A DNA stretch of 64,000 bases from Escherichia coli (GTDB lineage Bacteria; Pseudomonadota; Gammaproteobacteria; Enterobacterales; Enterobacteriaceae), in NCBI RefSeq assembly GCF_048403405.1, contig NZ_CP183129.1; one strand, 5' to 3'. Shown here piece by piece: positions 13,932 through 62,518 of the stretch. The position numbers and the translations under genes were made by a program. Below the pieces are notes generated by a model. The model worked only from the letters and a program-made list of their open reading frames with translations. It had not been told where the DNA came from and searched no databases. Position 1 is the first letter of the stretch, and each line of letters begins with the position of its first letter.

Positions 13932-14008
13932 GGCTACGTAGCTCAGTTGGTTAGAGCACATCACTCATAATGATGGGGTCACAGGTTCGAATCCCGTCGT
14001 AGCCACCA
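13932..14008 (+). tRNA. metT: tRNA-Met (CAU), elongator
   Basis: 77-nt cloverleaf ending CCA; anticodon loop CTCATAA. Confidence 0.9.
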
Positions 14009-14016
14009 TCTTTTTT

Positions 14017-14101
14017 GCGGGAGTGGCGAAATTGGTAGACGCACCAGATTTAGGTTCTGGCGCCGCAAGGTGTGCGAGTTCAAGTCTCGCCTCCCGCACC
14101 A
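14017..14101 (+). tRNA. leuW: tRNA-Leu (UAG)
   Basis: 85-nt class II tRNA with long variable arm; anticodon TAG; ends CCA. Confidence 0.9.
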
Positions 14102-14124
14102 TTCACCAGAAAGCGTTGTACGGA

Positions 14125-14199
14125 TGGGGTATCGCCAAGCGGTAAGGCACCGGTTTTTGATACCGGCATTCCCTGGTTCGAATCCAGGTACCCCAGCCA
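14125..14199 (+). tRNA. glnU: tRNA-Gln (UUG)
   Basis: 75 nt; TGGGGTATCGCCAAGCGG..., anticodon loop TTTTGAT; ends CCA. Confidence 0.9.
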
Positions 14200-14233
14200 T
14201 CTTCTTCGAGTAAGCGGTTCACCGCCCGGTTAT

Positions 14234-14308
14234 TGGGGTATCGCCAAGCGGTAAGGCACCGGTTTTTGATACCGGCATTCCCTGGTTCGAATCCAGGTAC
14301 CCCAGCCA
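14234..14308 (+). tRNA. glnW: tRNA-Gln (UUG)
   Basis: Identical copy of the preceding tRNA-Gln (UUG). Confidence 0.9.
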
Positions 14309-14323
14309 TCGAAGAAACAATCT

Positions 14324-14400
14324 GGCTACGTAGCTCAGTTGGTTAGAGCACATCACTCATAATGATGGGGTCACAGGTTCGAATCCCGTCGTAGCCACCA
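14324..14400 (+). tRNA. metU: tRNA-Met (CAU), elongator
   Basis: Identical copy of the first tRNA-Met. Confidence 0.9.
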
Positions 14401-14448
14401 AATTCTGAATGTGTCGAATATGTTCGGCAAATTCAAAAACCAATTTGT

Positions 14449-14523
14449 TGGGGTATCGCCAAGCGGTAAGGCACCGGATTCTGATTCCGGCATTCCGAGG
14501 TTCGAATCCTCGTACCCCAGCCA
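14449..14523 (+). tRNA. glnV: tRNA-Gln (CUG)
   Basis: 75 nt; anticodon loop TTCTGAT; ends CCA. Confidence 0.9.
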
Positions 14524-14560
14524 ATTTATTCAAGACGCTTACCTTGTAAGTGCACCCAGT

Positions 14561-14635
14561 TGGGGTATCGCCAAGCGGTAAGGCACCGGATTCTGATTCC
14601 GGCATTCCGAGGTTCGAATCCTCGTACCCCAGCCA
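14561..14635 (+). tRNA. glnX: tRNA-Gln (CUG)
   Basis: Identical copy of the preceding tRNA-Gln (CUG). Confidence 0.9.
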
Positions 14636-19840: not shown

Positions 19841-20719
19841 ATGAGCGACGACAATTCACACAGTAGTGACACGATAAGCAACAAGAAGGGATTTTTCTCC
19901 CTGTTACTCAGCCAACTTTTCCACGGTGAACCGAAAAACCGTGACGAACTGCTGGCGCTGATCCGTGATTCCGGGCAGAACGACCTTATCGACGAAGATA
20001 CGCGCGATATGCTCGAAGGGGTGATGGACATCGCAGACCAACGCGTCCGCGACATCATGATCCCCCGCTCCCAGATGATTACCCTGAAACGCAACCAGAC
20101 GCTGGACGAATGCCTTGATGTCATCATCGAGTCCGCCCACTCACGTTTCCCGGTGATTAGCGAAGACAAAGATCACATTGAAGGGATTCTGATGGCGAAA
20201 GACTTGCTGCCGTTTATGCGCAGCGATGCTGAAGCCTTCAGCATGGACAAAGTGTTACGTCAGGCGGTTGTCGTTCCTGAAAGTAAGCGCGTAGACCGGA
20301 TGCTGAAAGAGTTTCGCTCTCAGCGTTACCACATGGCGATCGTCATTGACGAATTCGGTGGGGTTTCCGGTCTGGTGACCATTGAAGACATCCTGGAACT
20401 GATTGTTGGTGAGATTGAAGACGAGTATGACGAAGAAGATGATATCGACTTCCGTCAGCTGAGTCGTCATACCTGGACCGTGCGCGCACTGGCTTCCATC
20501 GAAGATTTCAACGAAGCGTTCGGCACCCACTTTAGCGATGAAGAGGTTGACACTATCGGTGGTCTGGTGATGCAGGCATTTGGGCATCTTCCGGCGCGTG
20601 GCGAAACCATCGACATCGACGGTTACCAGTTCAAAGTGGCGATGGCCGACAGTCGGCGTATTATTCAGGTTCATGTCAAAATCCCGGATGACTCACCCCA
20701 GCCGAAGCTGGATGAATAA
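19841..20719 (+). CDS. corC: CBS-domain Mg/Co efflux-associated protein CorC
   Basis: 292 aa; recognised as YbeX/CorC. Confidence 0.9.
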
Positions 20720-20743
20720 AACCGAAACTGGATAGATAACTAC

Positions 20744-22282
20744 ATGGCTTTTGCCTCATTAATTGAACGCCAGCGCATTCGCCTGCTGCTGGCGTTATTA
20801 TTCGGTGCCTGCGGAACGCTGGCCTTCTCTCCTTACGACGTCTGGTCTGCGGCGATTATTTCGCTGATGGGGCTTCAGGCGCTGACCTTTAACCGCCGTC
20901 CACTCCAGTCTGCCGCTATTGGCTTTTGCTGGGGATTTGGCCTCTTTGGCAGCGGTATTAACTGGGTCTATGTCAGCATCGCGACTTTTGGCGGAATGCC
21001 TGGCCCGGTTAACATCTTCCTGGTGGTACTGCTGGCGGCGTATTTGTCGCTGTATACCGGATTATTTGCTGGCGTGCTGTCGCGTCTGTGGCCGAAAACC
21101 ACCTGGCTGCGCGTGGCGATTGCCGCCCCTGCTCTCTGGCAAGTGACCGAGTTTCTGCGCGGTTGGGTGCTGACTGGTTTCCCGTGGTTACAGTTCGGCT
21201 ATAGCCAGATTGATGGCCCGTTAAAAGGGCTGGCACCGATAATGGGCGTGGAAGCCATTAACTTCCTGCTAATGATGGTTAGCGGCCTGCTGGCACTGGC
21301 GTTGGTCAAACGCAACTGGCGTCCGATGGTGGTGGCCGTCGTGCTGTTCGCCCTTCCCTTCCCGCTGCGTTACATCCAGTGGTTTACCCCGCAACCGGAG
21401 AAAACCATTCAGGTTTCGATGGTTCAGGGCGATATTCCGCAATCGCTGAAGTGGGACGAAAGCCAGCTTCTTAATACGCTGAAAATTTATTACAACGCGA
21501 CGGCACCGCTGATGGGCAAATCGTCGCTGATTATCTGGCCGGAGTCGGCGATAACCGATCTGGAAATTAATCAGCAACCGTTCCTCAAAGCACTGGACGG
21601 TGAGTTGCGCGATAAAGGTAGCTCGCTGGTCACCGGGATTGTCGACGCGCGTCTCAATAAGCAGAACCGCTACGATACCTACAACACCATCATCACGCTG
21701 GGGAAAGGTGCGCCGTACAGCTACGAATCAGCCGATCGCTATAACAAAAACCATCTGGTGCCGTTTGGCGAGTTTGTCCCGCTGGAGTCGATTCTGCGTC
21801 CGTTAGCGCCGTTCTTTGATCTGCCGATGTCGTCGTTCAGCCGTGGGCCATATATCCAGCCGCTGCTGTCGGTAAACGGTATTGAGCTTACTGCGGCTAT
21901 TTGCTACGAGATCATTCTTGGCGAGCAAGTGCGTGATAACTTCCGCCCGGATACCGACTACCTGCTGACTATCTCCAACGATGCGTGGTTTGGTAAATCT
22001 ATTGGTCCATGGCAACACTTCCAGATGGCGCGAATGCGTGCGCTGGAGTTGGCGCGCCCGCTACTGCGCAGCACCAATAACGGCATTACGGCGGTGATTG
22101 GCCCGCAGGGTGAGATTCAGGCGATGATCCCGCAATTCACCCGCGAAGTATTAACCACTAACGTGACGCCGACTACCGGACTCACACCGTACGCACGTAC
22201 CGGCAACTGGCCGCTGTGGGTACTGACGGCATTGTTTGGTTTTGCTGCTGTGCTGATGAGCCTGCGTCAACGACGTAAATAA
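20744..22282 (+). CDS. lnt: Apolipoprotein N-acyltransferase
   Basis: 512 aa; N-terminal membrane helices and C-terminal nitrilase-like domain. Confidence 0.93.
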
Positions 22283-22327
22283 TCCCTTCTTATCGTGCCG
22301 GAATACATCCCGTATTTCGGCACGCTC

Positions 22328-22357
22328 ACCGGATGCGGCATCAGTGCGTTATCCGGA
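22328..22357. repeat. REP-like palindromic element (imperfect)
   Basis: ccGGATGCGGCatcagtGCGTTATCCGG resembles the E. coli REP consensus; sits in the lnt-gltI intergenic region. Confidence 0.4.
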
Positions 22358-22678
22358 TAACAAAATTCCCCTATCCAACTTTGGCACATCTATTGCTTTG
22401 TTATACAAGGCAAAGCTTGAACCAGCATCAGTACAACCCGGTTGCACCACAGCAATCCACGGGTAGCACCAAAAGAGTGCATTTTAAGAATTTTGCTTCG
22501 GAATGGTGCGGCGCATCTCGCAAAAACAAACAATAAAACAGCAATATCTTTACATTTAACCAAACTAAATGTTACCTAACAGGCACAACACTGCACAATA
22601 AAGTTGCAGACGATAACAACACAAACACTCACAACAGGTATCCATGCGTTCTTAACGCAGAAGATAAAGGAGTTGGAT

Positions 22679-23587
22679 ATGCAATTACGTAAACCTGCCA
22701 CAGCAATCCTCGCCCTGGCGCTTTCCGCAGGACTGGCACAGGCAGATGACGCCGCCCCGGCAGCGGGCAGTACGCTGGACAAAATCGCCAAAAACGGTGT
22801 GATTGTCGTCGGTCACCGTGAATCTTCAGTACCTTTCTCTTATTACGACAATCAGCAAAAAGTGGTGGGTTACTCGCAGGATTACTCCAACGCCATTGTT
22901 GAAGCAGTGAAAAAGAAACTCAACAAACCGGACTTGCAGGTGAAACTGATTCCGATCACCTCACAAAACCGTATTCCACTGCTGCAAAACGGCACTTTCG
23001 ATTTTGAATGTGGTTCCACCACCAATAACGTCGAACGCCAAAAACAGGCGGCTTTCTCTGACACTATTTTCGTGGTCGGTACGCGCCTGCTGACCAAAAA
23101 GGGCGGCGATATCAAAGATTTTGCCGACCTGAAAGACAAAGCCGTAGTCGTCACTTCCGGCACTACCTCTGAAGTTTTGCTCAACAAACTGAATGAAGAG
23201 CAAAAAATGAATATGCGCATCATCAGCGCCAAAGATCACGGTGACTCTTTCCGCACCCTGGAAAGCGGTCGTGCCGTTGCCTTTATGATGGATGATGCCC
23301 TGCTGGCCGGTGAACGTGCGAAAGCGAAGAAACCAGACAACTGGGAAATCGTCGGCAAGCCGCAGTCTCAGGAAGCCTACGGTTGTATGTTGCGTAAAGA
23401 TGATCCGCAGTTCAAAAAGCTGATGGATGACACCATCGCTCAGGTGCAGACCTCCGGTGAAGCGGAAAAATGGTTTGATAAATGGTTCAAAAATCCAATT
23501 CCGCCGAAAAACCTGAACATGAATTTCGAACTGTCAGACGAAATGAAAGCACTGTTCAAAGAACCGAATGACAAAGCACTGAACTAA
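22679..23587 (+). CDS. gltI: Glutamate/aspartate ABC transporter periplasmic binding protein
   Basis: 302 aa from MQLRKPATAILALA (signal peptide) with AAGGAG RBS; ORF-track N-terminal extension rejected. Confidence 0.93.
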   Translation: MQLRKPATAILALALSAGLAQADDAAPAAGSTLDKIAKNGVIVVGHRESSVPFSYYDNQQKVVGYSQDYSNAIVEAVKKKLNKPDLQVKLIPITSQNRIPLLQNGTFDFECGSTTNNVERQKQAAFSDTIFVVGTRLLTKKGGDIKDFADLKDKAVVVTSGTTSEVLLNKLNEEQKMNMRIISAKDHGDSFRTLESGRAVAFMMDDALLAGERAKAKKPDNWEIVGKPQSQEAYGCMLRKDDPQFKKLMDDTIAQVQTSGEAEKWFDKWFKNPIPPKNLNMNFELSDEMKALFKEPNDKALN

Positions 23588-23742
23588 TTACAAGAACCAG
23601 GGGCGGAAATTCCAGCCCTCTCGATTGTTACGTAGCACGGACAGACTATACGCCTGATGGTCGTTCCCCATCGGGCCTGAAAACCGCAATACGCTGGGTA
23701 ACAATCTTCGAGGGTAGCAGTTAACGCTGCTACCCTCTTTTT
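23588..23742 (+). ncRNA. sroC: SroC-type sRNA derived from the gltI-gltJ spacer (boundaries approximate)
   Basis: Established location of SroC in the gltI-gltJ intergenic region; terminator hairpin GGGTAGCAG-ttaac-GCTGCTACCC plus U-tract at 23711-23742. The 5' end is not determinable from sequence. Confidence 0.45.
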
Positions 23743-23756
23743 TCTGGAGTAGATTT

Positions 23757-24497
23757 ATGTCTATAGACTGGAACTGGGGTATTTTTTTACAACAAGCCCC
23801 GTTCGGCAACACCACCTATCTTGGTTGGATCTGGAGTGGTTTTCAGGTGACGATCGCTTTGTCGATCTGCGCCTGGATTATCGCTTTCCTCGTCGGTTCA
23901 TTTTTCGGCATTTTACGTACCGTTCCAAACCGTTTTCTCTCCGGTCTGGGTACGTTGTATGTCGAACTGTTCCGCAACGTGCCGTTGATTGTGCAATTCT
24001 TTACCTGGTATCTGGTGATCCCGGAGCTGCTGCCGGAGAAAATCGGCATGTGGTTTAAGGCCGAGCTGGATCCCAATATTCAGTTTTTCCTTTCATCCAT
24101 GCTCTGCCTGGGGCTGTTTACCGCCGCCCGTGTTTGCGAACAGGTACGCGCCGCGATCCAGTCGCTGCCGCGAGGGCAAAAAAATGCCGCGCTGGCGATG
24201 GGCCTGACGCTACCGCAGGCTTATCGATACGTACTGTTGCCTAATGCTTATCGCGTTATCGTCCCGCCGATGACCTCCGAGATGATGAACCTGGTGAAAA
24301 ACTCTGCCATCGCCTCGACTATTGGTCTGGTGGATATGGCGGCGCAGGCGGGTAAATTGCTTGATTACTCAGCCCACGCCTGGGAGTCGTTTACCGCCAT
24401 CACGCTGGCGTATGTATTGATTAACGCTTTTATCATGCTGGTGATGACGCTGGTTGAACGTAAAGTTCGCCTGCCTGGCAACATGGGGGGCAAATAA
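23757..24497 (+). CDS. gltJ: Glutamate/aspartate ABC transporter permease
   Basis: 246 aa; synteny. Confidence 0.92.
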
Positions 24498-25171
24498 TGT
24501 ACGAGTTTGACTGGAGTTCCATTGTCCCTTCCCTGCCATATCTGCTCGACGGGCTGGTGATCACGCTGAAAATCACCGTCACAGCAGTCGTGATTGGTAT
24601 TTTGTGGGGCACCATGCTGGCGGTGATGCGCTTGTCCAGCTTTGCGCCCGTAGCGTGGTTTGCCAAAGCCTACGTTAACGTATTCCGCTCGATTCCTTTA
24701 GTTATGGTTTTGCTGTGGTTTTACCTGATCGTGCCGGGTTTTCTGCAAAACGTACTGGGATTATCACCAAAAAATGACATCCGTTTAATTTCGGCGATGG
24801 TGGCGTTTTCGATGTTTGAAGCAGCCTACTATTCAGAGATTATCCGTGCCGGTATTCAAAGTATTTCCCGTGGTCAGTCGAGCGCCGCGCTGGCGTTGGG
24901 GATGACTCACTGGCAGTCGATGAAACTGATTATTCTGCCGCAGGCTTTCCGCGCGATGGTGCCGCTGCTGCTCACTCAGGGCATCGTACTGTTCCAGGAT
25001 ACCTCACTGGTGTATGTGTTATCTCTGGCCGATTTCTTCCGTACCGCTTCAACCATTGGTGAGCGTGATGGTACGCAGGTCGAGATGATCCTGTTTGCCG
25101 GATTTGTTTATTTCGTTATTAGCCTTAGCGCGTCGTTGTTGGTCAGCTACTTGAAAAGAAGGACAGCTTAA
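24497..25171 (+). CDS. gltK: Glutamate/aspartate ABC transporter permease
   Basis: 224 aa; start overlaps gltJ stop. Confidence 0.92.
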
Positions 25172-25896
25172 TGATTACCCTGAAAAATGTTTCAAAATGG
25201 TATGGTCACTTTCAGGTGCTGACCGACTGCTCAACCGAAGTGAAAAAAGGCGAAGTGGTGGTGGTTTGCGGCCCGTCTGGTTCCGGCAAATCAACGCTGA
25301 TTAAAACCGTCAACGGCCTCGAACCGGTGCAGCAAGGTGAAATTACCGTCGATGGCATCGTGGTTAACGATAAGAAAACCGATCTGGCAAAGCTGCGTTC
25401 CCGCGTCGGGATGGTGTTCCAGCATTTCGAGTTGTTCCCCCATTTGTCGATTATTGAAAACCTGACCCTGGCGCAGGTGAAAGTGCTTAAACGCGATAAA
25501 GCACCCGCTCGTGAAAAAGCATTGAAATTGCTGGAGCGCGTCGGGCTTTCCGCTCATGCCAATAAGTTTCCGGCGCAGCTTTCCGGCGGTCAGCAGCAGC
25601 GTGTGGCGATCGCTCGCGCATTGTGCATGGATCCTATCGCGATGCTGTTCGACGAACCGACATCGGCGCTGGATCCGGAGATGATCAACGAAGTGCTGGA
25701 CGTGATGGTGGAACTGGCGAACGAAGGAATGACCATGATGGTGGTGACCCACGAAATGGGCTTTGCCCGTAAAGTGGCGAATCGGGTGATCTTTATGGAC
25801 GAGGGTAAAATTGTCGAAGACTCGCCGAAAGACGCTTTCTTCGATGATCCGAAATCGGACCGCGCAAAAGACTTCCTCGCGAAAATCCTGCATTAA
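25171..25896 (+). CDS. gltL: Glutamate/aspartate ABC transporter ATP-binding protein
   Basis: 241 aa; Walker [10 protein letters not shown] and LSGGQQQR signature. Confidence 0.93.
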
Positions 25897-26013
25897 TCAC
25901 TCTGGCGCGCATACCCAAGTGCGCGCCATCTCACGCTTTATCGTTTCACTCCTCGTATCTGTTACATCCTGGCGTTACCCTTGTCGCAAAGAAGCACACA
26001 ACAAGGAGCAACA

Positions 26014-26949
26014 ATGGCACTGCCAATTCTGTTAGATTGCGACCCAGGTCATGACGACGCTATCGCAATAGTTCTTGCCCTCGCCTCACCAGAGCTTGAT
26101 GTCAAAGCAATTACGTCTTCCGCCGGAAACCAGACTCCAGAAAAAACCTTACGCAATGTTCTGCGTATGCTGACCTTGCTTAATCGCACCGATATTCCGG
26201 TAGCAGGCGGCGCGGTAAAACCGTTAATGCGTGAGTTGATTATCGCGGACAATGTGCACGGCGAAAGCGGTCTCGACGGCCCGGCATTACCGGAACCGAC
26301 GTTCGCACCGCAAAACTGTACGGCGGTGGAGCTGATGGCGAAAACGCTGCGTGAAAGTGCGGAACCTGTCACGATTGTGTCTACCGGACCGCAAACTAAC
26401 GTTGCCTTGCTGCTCAATAGCCATCCGGAACTGCATAGCAAAATTGCCCGTATCGTGATTATGGGCGGCGCAATGGGGCTTGGTAACTGGACGCCAGCCG
26501 CCGAGTTTAATATTTATGTTGACCCGGAAGCGGCAGAAATTGTTTTCCAGTCAGGGATCCCGGTGGTGATGGCCGGTCTGGATGTTACTCACAAAGCACA
26601 AATTCACGTTGAGGACACCGAGCGTTTCCGCGCGATTGGCAACCCTGTTTCAACCATTGTTGCCGAACTGCTGGATTTCTTCCTCGAATATCATAAAGAC
26701 GAAAAATGGGGCTTTGTCGGCGCACCGCTGCATGACCCATGCACCATCGCCTGGCTGTTAAACCCGGAGTTGTTTACCACTGTTGAGCGCTGGGTTGGCG
26801 TGGAAACACAAGGGAAATATACCCAGGGTATGACGGTTGTTGATTATTATTATCTGACCGGCAATAAACCGAATGCTACTGTAATGGTCGATGTTGATCG
26901 TCAGGGCCTTGTTGATTTACTGGCTGATCGTCTGAAATTTTACGCTTAA
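26014..26949 (+). CDS. rihA: Pyrimidine-specific ribonucleoside hydrolase
   Basis: 311 aa from [15 protein letters not shown] (nucleoside hydrolase motif) with AAGGAG RBS. Confidence 0.92.
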
Positions 26950-26993
26950 TCACTCGCCGGATGACATCACGCCATCCGGCACCACTCATTTCA

Positions 26994-27476
26994 TTAAGGC
27001 TCGAACGGGCGTCTCTGGAACTGGTCATGACCACATTTCGGGCATAGCGTCAGCACTTCCGGTGTGTAGATCGGGAGATGGAAATGACATTTCTCGCAGA
27101 CCAGATTACCCAGCCCTACCACTTCTCCGCTGTGATAAACCCCGTGATGATTGAGGTCCTGGAAAACTTCGCGCCATTCAAGCTGCGTTTTATCGGTGAT
27201 GTCTGCCAGCTCCTGCCACAAGCTTTCTTTAATCACCCGCATAAAGACGCTGTCAGACTCTTCTTTCAGGCTCTCTTCATAGCTCATGGCGAACTCTTCC
27301 AGGTCACGTCTGACAGCTCGCGTCAGCTCATCGACTTCGGTTCGCGTTAACTCCCCTGTTTTTATTACGCGCTCGCGCGCCTGTTCCACCAGTGCGTCGA
27401 TATCACGTTCGCCATTGCGCAGGCGTTCGCTCAGTGACGCGACCAGTTCACGGTAATATTGAGCAACCTTGTTCAT
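26994..27476 (-). CDS. ybeL: DUF1451 zinc-ribbon protein YbeL
   Basis: 160 aa; C-terminal CxxC...CPKC pairs; convergent with rihA. Confidence 0.85.
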   Translation of the reverse strand: MNKVAQYYRELVASLSERLRNGERDIDALVEQARERVIKTGELTRTEVDELTRAVRRDLEEFAMSYEESLKEESDSVFMRVIKESLWQELADITDKTQLEWREVFQDLNHHGVYHSGEVVGLGNLVCEKCHFHLPIYTPEVLTLCPKCGHDQFQRRPFEP

Positions 27477-27710
27477 CGTTTCATCTCCCGGGTCGTTAAC
27501 TGACTATAATAATAGACGTTCTTTGTTCCTTGCTTTGCTAATACGCCCACAAACTCTGTAAATTAATGTATGAATAATCCGGGCATCATTTCAACGTCGA
27601 ATGCGCGAAAGGCTGTTTTGACGCGGACGTTTGGGCTATGCTATGCGGATCTGAAAAACCACCTCAACGCTACATTTGTAGCCGTATTGAAAACAGGACC
27701 ACTGGCTGCC

Positions 27711-30293
27711 ATGCAAGAGCAATACCGCCCGGAAGAGATAGAATCCAAAGTACAGCTTCATTGGGATGAGAAGCGCACATTTGAAGTAACCGAAGACGAG
27801 AGCAAAGAGAAGTATTACTGCCTGTCTATGCTTCCCTATCCTTCTGGTCGACTACACATGGGCCACGTACGTAACTACACCATTGGTGACGTGATCGCCC
27901 GCTACCAGCGTATGCTGGGCAAAAACGTCCTGCAGCCGATCGGCTGGGACGCGTTTGGTCTGCCTGCGGAAGGCGCGGCGGTGAAAAACAACACCGCACC
28001 GGCACCGTGGACGTACGACAACATCGCGTACATGAAAAACCAGCTCAAAATGCTGGGCTTTGGTTATGACTGGAGCCGCGAGCTGGCAACCTGTACACCG
28101 GAATACTACCGTTGGGAACAGAAATTCTTCACCGAGCTGTATAAAAAAGGCCTGGTATATAAGAAGACTTCTGCAGTCAACTGGTGCCCGAACGACCAGA
28201 CCGTACTGGCGAACGAACAAGTTATCGACGGCTGCTGCTGGCGCTGCGATACCAAAGTTGAGCGTAAAGAGATCCCGCAATGGTTTATCAAAATCACCGC
28301 TTACGCTGACGAGCTGCTTAACGATCTGGATAAACTGGATCACTGGCCAGACACCGTTAAAACCATGCAGCGTAACTGGATCGGTCGTTCCGAAGGCGTG
28401 GAAATCACCTTCAACGTTAACGACTATGACAACACGCTGACCGTTTACACTACCCGCCCGGACACCTTTATGGGTTGTACCTACCTGGCGGTAGCGGCAG
28501 GTCATCCGCTGGCGCAGAAAGCGGCGGAAAATAATCCTGAACTGGCGGCCTTTATTGACGAATGCCGTAACACCAAAGTTGCCGAAGCTGAAATGGCAAC
28601 GATGGAGAAAAAAGGCGTCGATACTGGCTTTAAAGCGGTTCACCCATTAACGGGCGAAGAAATTCCCGTTTGGGCAGCAAACTTCGTATTGATGGAGTAC
28701 GGCACGGGCGCAGTTATGGCGGTTCCGGGTCACGACCAGCGCGACTACGAGTTTGCCTCTAAATACGGCCTGAATATCAAACCGGTTATCCTGGCAGCTG
28801 ACGGCTCTGAGCCAGATCTTTCTCAGCAAGCCCTGACTGAAAAAGGCGTTCTGTTCAACTCTGGCGAGTTCAACGGTCTTGACCATGAAGCGGCCTTCAA
28901 CGCTATCGCCGATAAACTGACTGCGATGGGCGTTGGCGAGCGTAAAGTGAACTACCGCCTGCGCGACTGGGGTGTTTCCCGTCAACGTTACTGGGGCGCG
29001 CCGATTCCGATGGTGACGCTGGAAGACGGTACCGTAATGCCGACCCCGGACGACCAGCTGCCGGTGATCCTGCCGGAAGATGTGGTGATGGACGGTATTA
29101 CCAGCCCGATTAAAGCAGATCCGGAGTGGGCAAAAACTACCGTTAACGGTATGCCAGCGCTGCGTGAAACCGACACTTTCGACACCTTTATGGAGTCCTC
29201 CTGGTACTATGCGCGCTACACTTGCCCGGAGTACAAAGAAGGTATGCTGGATTCCAAAGCGGCTAACTACTGGCTGCCGGTGGATATCTACATTGGTGGT
29301 ATCGAACACGCCATTATGCACCTGCTCTACTTCCGCTTCTTCCACAAACTGATGCGTGATGCAGGCATGGTGAACTCTGACGAACCAGCGAAACAGTTAC
29401 TGTGTCAGGGTATGGTGCTGGCAGATGCCTTCTACTATGTTGGCGAAAACGGCGAACGTAACTGGGTTTCCCCGGTTGATGCTATCGTTGAACGTGACGA
29501 GAAAGGCCGTATCGTGAAAGCGAAAGATGCGGCAGGCCATGAACTGGTTTATACCGGCATGAGCAAAATGTCCAAGTCGAAGAACAACGGTATCGACCCG
29601 CAGGTGATGGTTGAACGTTACGGCGCGGACACCGTTCGTCTGTTTATGATGTTTGCTTCTCCGGCTGATATGACTCTCGAATGGCAGGAATCCGGCGTGG
29701 AAGGGGCTAACCGCTTCCTGAAACGTGTCTGGAAACTGGTTTACGAGCACACAGCGAAAGGTGATGTTGCGGCACTGAACGTTGATGCGCTGACTGAAGA
29801 TCAGAAAGCGCTGCGTCGCGATGTGCATAAAACGATCGCTAAAGTGACCGATGATATCGGCCGTCGTCAGACCTTCAACACCGCAATTGCGGCGATTATG
29901 GAGCTGATGAACAAACTGGCGAAAGCACCGACCGATGGCGAGCAGGACCGCGCCCTGATGCAGGAAGCGCTGCTGGCGGTAGTCCGTATGCTTAACCCGT
30001 TCACCCCGCACATCTGCTTCACGCTGTGGCAGGAACTGAAAGGCGAAGGCGATATCGACAACGCACCGTGGCCGGTTGCTGACGAAAAAGCGATGGTGGA
30101 AGACTCCACGCTGGTCGTGGTGCAGGTTAACGGTAAAGTCCGTGCAAAAATCACCGTTCCGGTGGACGCAACGGAAGAACAGGTTCGCGAACGTGCTGGC
30201 CAGGAACATCTGGTAGCAAAATATCTTGATGGCGTTACTGTACGTAAAGTGATTTACGTACCAGGTAAACTCCTCAATCTGGTCGTTGGCTAA
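27711..30293 (+). CDS. leuS: Leucyl-tRNA synthetase
   Basis: 860 aa from [11 protein letters not shown]; HMGH and KMSKS class I motifs; ORF-track N-terminal extension rejected. Confidence 0.95.
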
Positions 30294-43275: not shown

Positions 43276-43306
43276 AAAAAACCCGCTTTTTGAAGCGGGT
43301 TTTTTT
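43276..43306. terminator. Bidirectional terminator between lipA and tatE
   Basis: AAAAA-ACCCGCTT-tttg-AAGCGGGT-TTTTTT. Confidence 0.7.
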
Positions 43307-44951: not shown

Positions 44952-44980
44952 AAAAAAAACCCGCTGATTAAGCGGGTTTT
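44952..44980. terminator. Bidirectional terminator between crcB and cspE
   Basis: A-tract, CCCGCT-gatta-AGCGGG hairpin, T-tract. Confidence 0.65.
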
Positions 44981-44999
44981 GAATTCTTGCTGACGTATC

Positions 45000-45209
45000 T
45001 TACAGAGCGATTACGTTTGCAGCAGAAGGGCCTTTGGCACCGTTAGTGATTTCGAACTCTACGCGCTGACCTTCAGCAAGAGTTTTAAAACCATTAGTCT
45101 GGATTGCAGAGAAGTGTACGAACACGTCTTTGCTGCCGTCTTCCGGAGTAATGAAACCGAATCCTTTGGACTCATTAAACCACTTAACGTTACCTTTAAT
45201 CTTAGACAT
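45000..45209 (-). CDS. cspE: Cold-shock-domain protein CspE
   Basis: 69 aa from [20 protein letters not shown]; ORF-track N-terminal extension rejected. Confidence 0.95.
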
Positions 45210-45383
45210 CAAAATTACCTTTACATGAAAAATAGACACAAATGCTGTGTCGGTTACCAGTACACCAATTGTGGTACGCTTTGTCCAGTGCAACTTTACT
45301 AAAAAGTGATAAAAGTCGCGTTATTTTTGATGTTACTTATTTTAGTTATTGATTTTAAAGAAGTTACTAAAACTTCATTTGTC

Positions 45384-45944
45384 TCAAAACTGAAAGCGCA
45401 TCCAGGCAAAGTACACATTGCCATTGTTGTAGGTACCCGGAATGTAGGTCATCTGAAAAGTCACTGGGCCATAACCCACGGAGGCCAATGGCAGTAGAAC
45501 CGGGAGAGGGATGTAATTCCAGTTATCGCGTGCCGTTACGCCAGCGGTGAATCCCAGACCTAAATGAAAATTTTCATCCGCCAGCGGTCGCCAGGTACTT
45601 TCCCATCCGTATCCGGCAATCGGTTCCCATTTGTTCCACGAGTCCTTAAATGCCATGGCATACAGGCCATGCCAGTTTCCTTTTTCATCCCAACGCGACT
45701 GACCAAAACCGCCACCCCACGGTCGCTCGTTATAGCGATCGGTTTTTTCTTTGTCGTAAGCGAAACGTGCATGCCAGGTGATGGCAGGAATATATAAATC
45801 ATAATGTTCAGGCTGTTGCCAGGTTTGTGCAATATTTTCTCTAAACGTTGTCATCCACTCATCTGCGTTAGCAAAAACTTTACCAACGCTGATTAACTGA
45901 ATAAAAACAAAGGAAAAGATAGCGACATATTGACTCACGTTCAT
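45384..45944 (-). CDS. pagP: Lipid A palmitoyltransferase PagP
   Basis: 186 aa from an internal ATG (MNVS...) with signal peptide; outer-membrane beta-barrel enzyme. Confidence 0.9.
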
Positions 45945-57413: not shown

Positions 57414-57450
57414 CGCCCGCCAGGTAAGCCCACCTGGCGGGCTTTTTTAT
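57414..57450 (+). terminator. Rho-independent terminator after citT
   Basis: CGCCCGCCAGGT-aagc-CCACCTGGCGGGC hairpin followed by TTTTTT. Confidence 0.7.
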
Positions 57451-58303: not shown

Positions 58304-58532
58304 TCCTCTGATTTACAAAACACGCTAATTCGTCTTCCATAAACCATGACGATTAAGATTTATACATAATGCGCTACATTGAGGAATTCCCTGAATGTGA
58401 CGCAAATCACTTCAAAGAGTGAGCAACAGTCAGTATCATCATGTGAGTTAAACCCTCGCCGCCTGACGGTGAGGGTTTTCTTTTGGGTATGTTTATCTGC
58501 GACACTCGCAGTACCGACGACATGGAGTAAAA

Positions 58533-62147: not shown

Positions 62148-62518
62148 CTATACTTCCTCCGTGTTTTCGATGAGATGTAAGGTAACCAATTTTTGCCGAT
62201 TCGGCTAATGCGTTTCCATTATCAAATCGATAAGTTTTACCTTACAACCTTCGTAAGACAACTTTGTGAACTTTGCACCGCCAGCGGCGATAAAAAGTAA
62301 AATGGCCCCCTTTCCAGGTGACCGTGTAATCTGAACTACCCTTTGGTATCTTCAGCGCCTGCCTGCAGGCTGAGGTGTTGCCCTTACAAATGCAACAACG
62401 ACATGGATTACAACACCCTCATAAACAAAGGGCAATCACCTGATCTAAGCTCTTACCTATGACAGTGATAGGTTATGCCTTTTACCCGACTTTTGCACTG
62501 ACTGAAAAGGACAAATTA
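62148..62518. promoter_or_regulatory. Divergent ahpC / dsbG promoter region (expected OxyR-dependent control of ahpC)
   Basis: Intergenic region between divergent ahpC and dsbG. OxyR regulation is known for this locus, but I did not locate the site with confidence. Confidence 0.4.

Follow-up and report, generated by a model that had tools for sequence, protein, structure and literature searches.

The feature that we analysed in a 64,000-nt stretch of Escherichia coli DNA (hereafter the window) is almost certainly the sroC locus, the source of an RNase E-cut sponge of GcvB that acts in a feed-forward loop. Indeed, the covariance model RF00369 (sroC) of Rfam matches positions 23583-23745 of the + strand over its full length (model positions 1-163 of 163), with a score of 174.8 bits for a gathering score of 45 and an E-value of 7.4e-37. 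These 163 nt are identical, at 163 of 163 positions, to sroC b4763 of K-12 MG1655 (NC_000913 686681-686843), the only nearby difference from K-12 being a synonymous AAA/AAG codon in gltI. As in K-12, sroC overlaps the end of gltI by 5 nt and leaves a gap of 11 nt to the gltJ ATG. This context, with the three elements on one strand, the RNA starting in the last gltI codons and stopping shortly before gltJ, also holds in other genera. In the whole analysis we met no sequence evidence against the sroC identity.

An earlier note on this DNA had read the spacer between gltI and gltJ as the source of an SroC-type sponge small RNA. This reading is borne out by the Rfam match, the identity with K-12, the shared neighbours and the two intact GcvB-pairing sites described below, and the alignment with annotated K-12 sroC that the note had suggested placed SroC here and not elsewhere. 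The statement that SroC comes from the gltI-gltJ spacer is mostly right, but the spacer alone does not hold the RNA, whose 5′ end lies 5 nt inside the gltI coding sequence; the interval considered there, 23588-23756, starts 5 nt late because the RNA begins at 23583. We took the exact 5′ end from the annotation and from Rfam; between the E. coli annotation and the Salmonella numbering of PMC4474525 there is an offset of 3 nt. As the note had also said, the SroC found here is an already known feature rather than a novel one, and its sequence is that of the K-12 reference. In the literature, SroC goes back to 2003 and its mechanism as a sponge to 2015.

The gltIJKL operon

The stretch 23588-23756 is the exact spacer between two ORFs of the + strand, gltI and gltJ. 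The first, gltI (22679-23587), encodes a periplasmic glutamate/aspartate-binding protein of 302 aa (Pfam SBP_bac_3, 6e-29), and gltJ (23757-24497) an ABC permease of 246 aa (Pfam BPD_transp_1). They are followed on the same strand by gltK (24497-25171), for a second permease of 224 aa, and by gltL (25171-25896), for an ATPase of 241 aa; in the ORF list the stop and start codons of gltJ, gltK and gltL overlap. The four proteins have the lengths of their K-12 counterparts (b0655, b0654, b0653 and b0652, respectively) and sroC is unaltered, in agreement with the earlier view that the locus is intact in this strain. The operon is oriented in the window opposite to the K-12 record. Among complete E. 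coli genomes, 5421 of 5426 carry the gltI/gltJ annotation over the corresponding stretch, which together with the ORF neighbours identifies the operon of the window as E. coli gltIJKL.

In this operon gltI is the first cistron, and SroC would be cut from the 3′ end of the gltI precursor. A consensus scan found no promoter-like site between gltI and gltJ on the + strand. The terminator described below is therefore probably leaky, since gltJKL lie downstream of it without an intervening promoter-like site, and we infer that gltJKL are expressed only via terminator read-through. A putative Shine-Dalgarno sequence of gltJ, GGAG (23746-23749, +), assigned to this role from its position, stands directly 3′ of the U-tract of the terminator and is kept in most species of the sroC alignment.

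Some 3′-UTR small RNAs arise from a promoter of their own, and SroC could in principle be such an independent gene, transcribed from within the 3′ end of gltI. We hold this to be highly improbable, since nothing similar to a sigma-70 site came out of the consensus scan of the + strand in 20000-28000. Moreover, the published SroC has a 5′ monophosphate and no transcription start site, and its production requires RNase E together with a leader of 20 nt or more (PMC4474525). Release of SroC by processing of the gltI transcript is thus the reading that we retain.

Upstream of gltI, K-12 MG1655 carries an IS5 element (IS5D, insH3) inserted about 100 nt before the gltI ATG. This element is absent from the window, in which the lnt-gltI spacer is uninterrupted at 22572-22579. 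Compared with K-12, the lnt-proximal part of this spacer is 95.3% identical and its gltI-proximal part 98.9%. At the other end of gltI, we observed in E. coli RM9088 (NZ_CP042298, locus L002, 449-475) a tandem duplication of 27 nt (GCACTGTTCAAAGAACCGAATGACAAG) at the extreme 3′ end of the gene, which adds 9 residues to the protein. It precedes the SroC 5′ end by a short distance, within the leader on which processing by RNase E depends, and sroC itself is unchanged in this strain.

The terminator hairpin

The terminator hairpin (23710-23737, +) comprises 11 perfect base pairs plus a closing G.U, with a loop of 4-6 nt. Its 5′ arm, GAGGGTAGCAG (23710-23720), and its 3′ arm, CTGCTACCCTC (23727-23737), are exact reverse complements of each other; they enclose the loop TTAACG (23721-23726), whose outer T and G can pair as G.U and so leave a loop of 4 nt. 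The hairpin is followed by a U-tract (23738-23745) made of T6 (23738-23743) and CT, the last nucleotide of which corresponds to the annotated 3′ end of K-12 SroC. With 12 pairs, 7 of them G-C, and T6 straight after the stem, this element has the make-up of an intrinsic (Rho-independent) terminator. Its folding energy is -22.7 kcal/mol (z = -4.9), and none of 200 shuffled sequences was as stable. These results confirm the strong hairpin with its T-run that had been noticed a short way before gltJ, and place it on the + strand. The stem had been described as perfect, which it is, and as 9 bp long, which counts only the inner GGGTAGCAG/CTGCTACCC pairs. The distance of 15 nt to gltJ has to be corrected: measured up to the ATG, it is 19 nt for the stem, 13 nt for the last T of the T-run and 11 nt for the 3′ end of sroC as annotated.

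A generic terminator scan of 20000-28000 returned 12 sites for 9.7 expected; as a class, such matches are thus at chance level and the scan alone proves little. The sroC terminator (12 pairs, 7 G-C) is nonetheless its top site by a wide margin. With a stricter scan of both strands of the 64 kb, in which a stem of 11 or more perfect bp and a T-rich tail were required, only two sites were found, the sroC terminator and a hairpin at 57415-57442 (+), and 40 Markov-simulated sequences contained no hairpin of at least 10 bp with a T-rich tail. In Salmonella, a leaky and conserved Rho-independent terminator in the gltI-gltJ spacer was shown to make the 3′ end of SroC (PMC4474525). Neither sroC nor gltI is named in the main text of a study that maps 3′ ends in E. 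coli (PMC7815308).

Fold and conservation of SroC

The whole 163-nt SroC has a minimum free energy (MFE) of -66.3 kcal/mol (z = -6.5). In the MFE fold, two stem-loops precede the terminator: SL1 (SroC nt 18-37; 23600-23619, +) and SL2 (nt 41-124; 23623-23706, +), a long irregular helix that bears both GcvB-binding sites. A 163-nt sroC is present in 5421 of the 5426 complete E. coli genomes, with an identity of at least 99% in 5249 of them. At the level of species, each represented by one genome, scanning with AGCACGGACNNACTATA yielded 97 matches, of which 58 were sroC-like, and sroC was found between gltI and gltJ in 58 species of Enterobacteriaceae, in genera that include Escherichia, Salmonella, Citrobacter, Enterobacter, Klebsiella, Raoultella, Kluyvera, Kosakonia, Siccibacter and Phytobacter.

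Conservation was assessed on an alignment of 57 sequences. For the SroC fold predicted from the window, 88.5% of cells were paired in it, versus 37-54% with slid partners. Compensatory changes, affecting both sides, were found in 16 pairs, and none of 500 shuffles reached the observed covariation score. In SL1, 87.7% of cells are paired across the 57 species and 2 pairs have changed on both sides; in SL2, the upper helix, which carries the second binding site (BS2) in its loop, is 97.3% paired with compensatory changes in 6 of its 9 pairs, and the lower helix shows them in 6 of 13 pairs. The predicted stem-loops SL1 and SL2 are thus supported by compensatory changes. The terminator stem, in turn, is 96% paired across the alignment yet almost invariant in sequence, and its core, GAGGGTAGC...GCTACCC, is nearly the same in all 57 species. 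This near-invariance fits a remark of PMC4474525, according to which nucleotides that are conserved apart from the GcvB sites could have a part in regulating termination.

In two species, Siccibacter turicensis and S. colletis (loci L051, 11975-12075, and L016), an insertion of about 95 nt interrupts the descending strand of SL2. The terminator seemed to be lost from these two loci, an interpretation that we rejected: the insertion shifts an intact terminator beyond the fixed interval that was extracted. Both Siccibacter loci keep the two GcvB-binding sites (BS1 and BS2) and the terminator, and their gltJ starts 11 nt past the U-tract.

This pattern of conservation bears on two other readings of the region. 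The first is that the hairpin is a mere intercistronic attenuator or stabiliser, which sets the ratio of GltI to GltJKL and shields the gltI mRNA from 3′ exonucleases, the RNA being an inert by-product. Such a role agrees with the place of the hairpin, behind the first cistron of an operon for an ABC importer, and with a terminator stem conserved by sequence and not by covariation, and PMC4474525 itself notes that the terminator yields a monocistronic gltI mRNA. Attenuation is however compatible with the sponge role and does not exclude it, and it is insufficient alone: the hairpin is preceded by 120 nt that are conserved and structured, with compensatory changes and two invariant sites complementary to GcvB, and mutational and compensatory tests have shown the regulation of GcvB (PMC4474525). 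In Salmonella, point mutations in BS1 and BS2 were already reported to alter GcvB levels without altering the gltI/gltJKL ratio. We therefore regard an attenuator with an inert by-product as very improbable.

The second reading is a protein encoded on the opposite strand, in a 75-aa ORF at 23815-23588 (-), whose open frame, with a GTG start, covers the whole spacer. Its product has no Pfam match. Furthermore, species differ by indels that are not multiples of three (such as the 7-nt insertion in the terminator loop and gaps of 6-8 nt in SL2), and the pattern of conservation is that of a paired RNA, so that the probability of such a protein is close to nil. The structured sponge RNA remains our reading of the region.

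Complementarity to GcvB

Both sites through which SroC contacts GcvB are present. BS1, GGACAGAC (SroC nt 57-64; 23639-23646, +), can form 8 contiguous Watson-Crick pairs with nt 156-163 of K-12 GcvB, and BS2, TCGTTCC (UCGUUCC in the RNA; nt 79-85, in the SL2 loop; 23661-23667, +), 7 contiguous Watson-Crick pairs with GcvB nt 13-19. Their spacing of 14 nt is the published one (PMC4474525). After the 3-nt offset, they are the published contacts C63/G160 and C87/G14 of the Salmonella numbering, and BS1 as defined by G61/C63/G65 in PMC4474525 is the same site. In the alignment, BS1 is invariant in 57 of 57 sequences, an invariance partly forced by the search pattern, and CGTTCCCC of BS2 is invariant as well.

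Two further complementary runs of 7-8 bp between SroC and GcvB sit inside closed helices. Altogether there are four runs of at least 7 bp, a number that is not strongly significant as 7% of mononucleotide shuffles reach it; the case for BS1 and BS2 rests thus on their match to published sites that were tested by mutation, and not on statistics. We searched for pairing by exact complementary runs and by a duplex restricted to the R1 region, full-length RNAduplex having given meaningless pairings all over the molecules. The gcvB gene was not matched within the 64-kb window, as expected from its location elsewhere on the chromosome, and the pairings of SroC and of the gltI leader were computed with K-12 GcvB, the strain's own gcvB being outside the window.

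In the 5′ leader of gltI, a CA-rich target site for the R1 seed of GcvB (22601-22641, +) is predicted to form a duplex of -39.6 kcal/mol with nt 60-95 of K-12 GcvB. The leader differs from that of K-12 by one base over its last 90 nt. Such a site was shown in Salmonella to make the parental mRNA itself a target of GcvB (PMC4474525). At the level of sequence, all components of the published feed-forward loop are therefore present in the window.

Lineage differences in the terminator

The terminator differs between lineages. In most genera, including Salmonella, it reads GAGGGUAGC-GCU-GCUACCCUU, with 9 pairs, a 3-nt loop and an energy of -13.7 kcal/mol. In Escherichia, 7 extra nucleotides (AGTTAAC) turn loop bases into stem, which gives the 12 pairs and -22.7 kcal/mol of the window; across the Escherichia loci the energy ranges from -16.0 to -22.7 kcal/mol, the former value being that of E. 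albertii (L006), where a G-to-A change creates a mismatch in the extended stem. A different insertion has the same effect in Kluyvera (-20.4 to -21.2 kcal/mol). We also observed that one species representative named E. coli (L018) has a T in place of the C found at position 23737 of the window, which turns the closing pair into a G.U (-20.3 kcal/mol). Overall, a 9-pair hairpin of -13.7 kcal/mol is replaced by hairpins of 11-13 pairs and about -20 to -24 kcal/mol in Escherichia and Kluyvera (-16.0 kcal/mol in E. albertii).

A second structure may bear on termination. In folds of nascent transcripts that end at SroC nt 131-143, the GAGG at the foot of the terminator's 5′ arm first pairs within an extended helix at the base of SL2, UCUCG/CGAGG, which is also the pairing drawn in the Rfam consensus. 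This helix (nt 37-41 with nt 127-131) is 94.7% paired across species and almost invariant, with one compensated change only. As soon as the 3′ arm can pair, the terminator is favoured, by 10.3 kcal/mol in the SroC of the window and by 8.0 kcal/mol in the two Salmonella loci; conversely, a fold in which the UCUCG/CGAGG helix is imposed is less stable by 10.3 kcal/mol in the former and by 2-13 kcal/mol in other species. We rejected this helix as an anti-terminator at equilibrium on the grounds of its energy cost and of the near absence of covariation, which would make it at most a transient co-transcriptional intermediate, or kinetic brake. On the basis of these folds, it could work as an anti-terminator that is built in and transient, or serve as a target for the trans-acting factor speculated upon in PMC4474525. 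That the ratio of termination to read-through is tuned by lineage and set by the kinetics of RNA folding is a tentative proposal, to which we give a low probability.

Other features of the window

The window holds further RNA elements. According to Rfam, seven tRNA genes are clustered at 13932-14632 (+), which is consistent with the K-12 tRNA cluster near asnB. Rfam also places a leader of the cspA-thermoregulator type with its cold-shock gene at 44952-45394 (-; 123.9 bits), an rnk leader at 58379-58487 (+; 124.9 bits) and, at 62292-62385 (-), a marginal and short match to STnc70 (44.1 bits for a gathering score of 40, over 94 nt of a 149-nt model). A palindromic hairpin at 43279-43302 has a T-rich tail on each strand and resembles a terminator that works in both directions.

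Discussion

The locus described here has the sequence, location, SL1/SL2/terminator fold, BS1 and BS2 sites and parental operon, with its GcvB site in the leader, of K-12 SroC b4763; as a system, it differs from K-12 only by the missing IS5 upstream of gltI. With respect to the SroC of Salmonella characterised by Miyakoshi, Chao and Vogel in 2015, and to that of most genera, it has a longer terminator stem (12 pairs and -22.7 kcal/mol versus 9 pairs and -13.7 kcal/mol) because of the 7-nt insertion in the loop. SroC shares with CpxQ, SdhX, NarS, OppZ and MalH a 3′ end made by an intrinsic terminator of the mRNA, a 5′ end made by RNase E and a dependence on Hfq (PMC9438474). It differs from them in that it comes from an operon-internal terminator and not from the end of an operon, and in that its main target is another small RNA, which makes it a sponge, and not an mRNA. 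Like the intercistronic elements of other ABC operons, such as the REP hairpins of malE-malF, the sroC element follows the first cistron and would favour the binding protein over the membrane components. Unlike a REP stabiliser, it is a true terminator, with a hairpin and a U-tract, and the fragment that it delimits acts in trans.

From the study of Miyakoshi, Chao and Vogel, the 5′ monophosphate end of SroC lies inside gltI and is made by RNase E with Hfq, and SroC contacts GcvB through two sites, each of 7-8 nt and separated by 14 nt, which leads to the decay of GcvB by RNase E; the E. coli SroC/GcvB pair works likewise and E. coli SroC, identical in sequence to that of the window, is functional (PMC4474525). 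In stationary-phase E. coli, SroC accounts for up to about 70% of GcvB chimeras (PMC9299463), and the topic has been reviewed (PMC9438474). By analogy with these published data, the 5′ end of the SroC described here would be made by RNase E, the terminator making the 3′ end only.

We can propose the following sequence of events. Transcription would start upstream of gltI, and part of it would stop at the terminator (23710-23745), whose sequence we observed, to yield a monocistronic gltI mRNA; the remainder would read through into gltJKL, as published for Salmonella and as suggested here by the operon layout. As published, RNase E guided by Hfq would then cut the terminated transcript a few nt before the gltI stop, at about 23583, and the product would be the stable, tightly folded SroC of 163 nt. 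BS1 and BS2, whose complementarity to GcvB we observed, would pair with two distant parts of GcvB (156-163 and 13-19) and expose it to the RNase E degradation described in the literature. The loss of GcvB would in turn de-repress mRNAs of amino-acid and peptide transporters, gltI included, which, given the target site found in the gltI leader, would close the published feed-forward loop. The same terminator would also set a high ratio of GltI to GltJKL. A high ratio of binding protein to membrane components is typical of ABC importers.

The value of this finding is that of an annotation check and not of a discovery. Under positions 23583-23745, pipeline-annotated E. coli RefSeq genomes name only gltI or gltJ, and the K-12 reference annotates sroC. 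The small RNA is thus unlabelled in most E. coli genomes annotated by NCBI, though it is present in 99.9% of the complete ones. For specialists, the point of interest is the source of the leakiness inside the operon. If the UCUCG/CGAGG helix does act on termination, it would set the amount of SroC relative to gltJKL, and hence the levels of GcvB; likewise, the longer stem of Escherichia may shift the ratio of SroC to gltJKL with respect to Salmonella.
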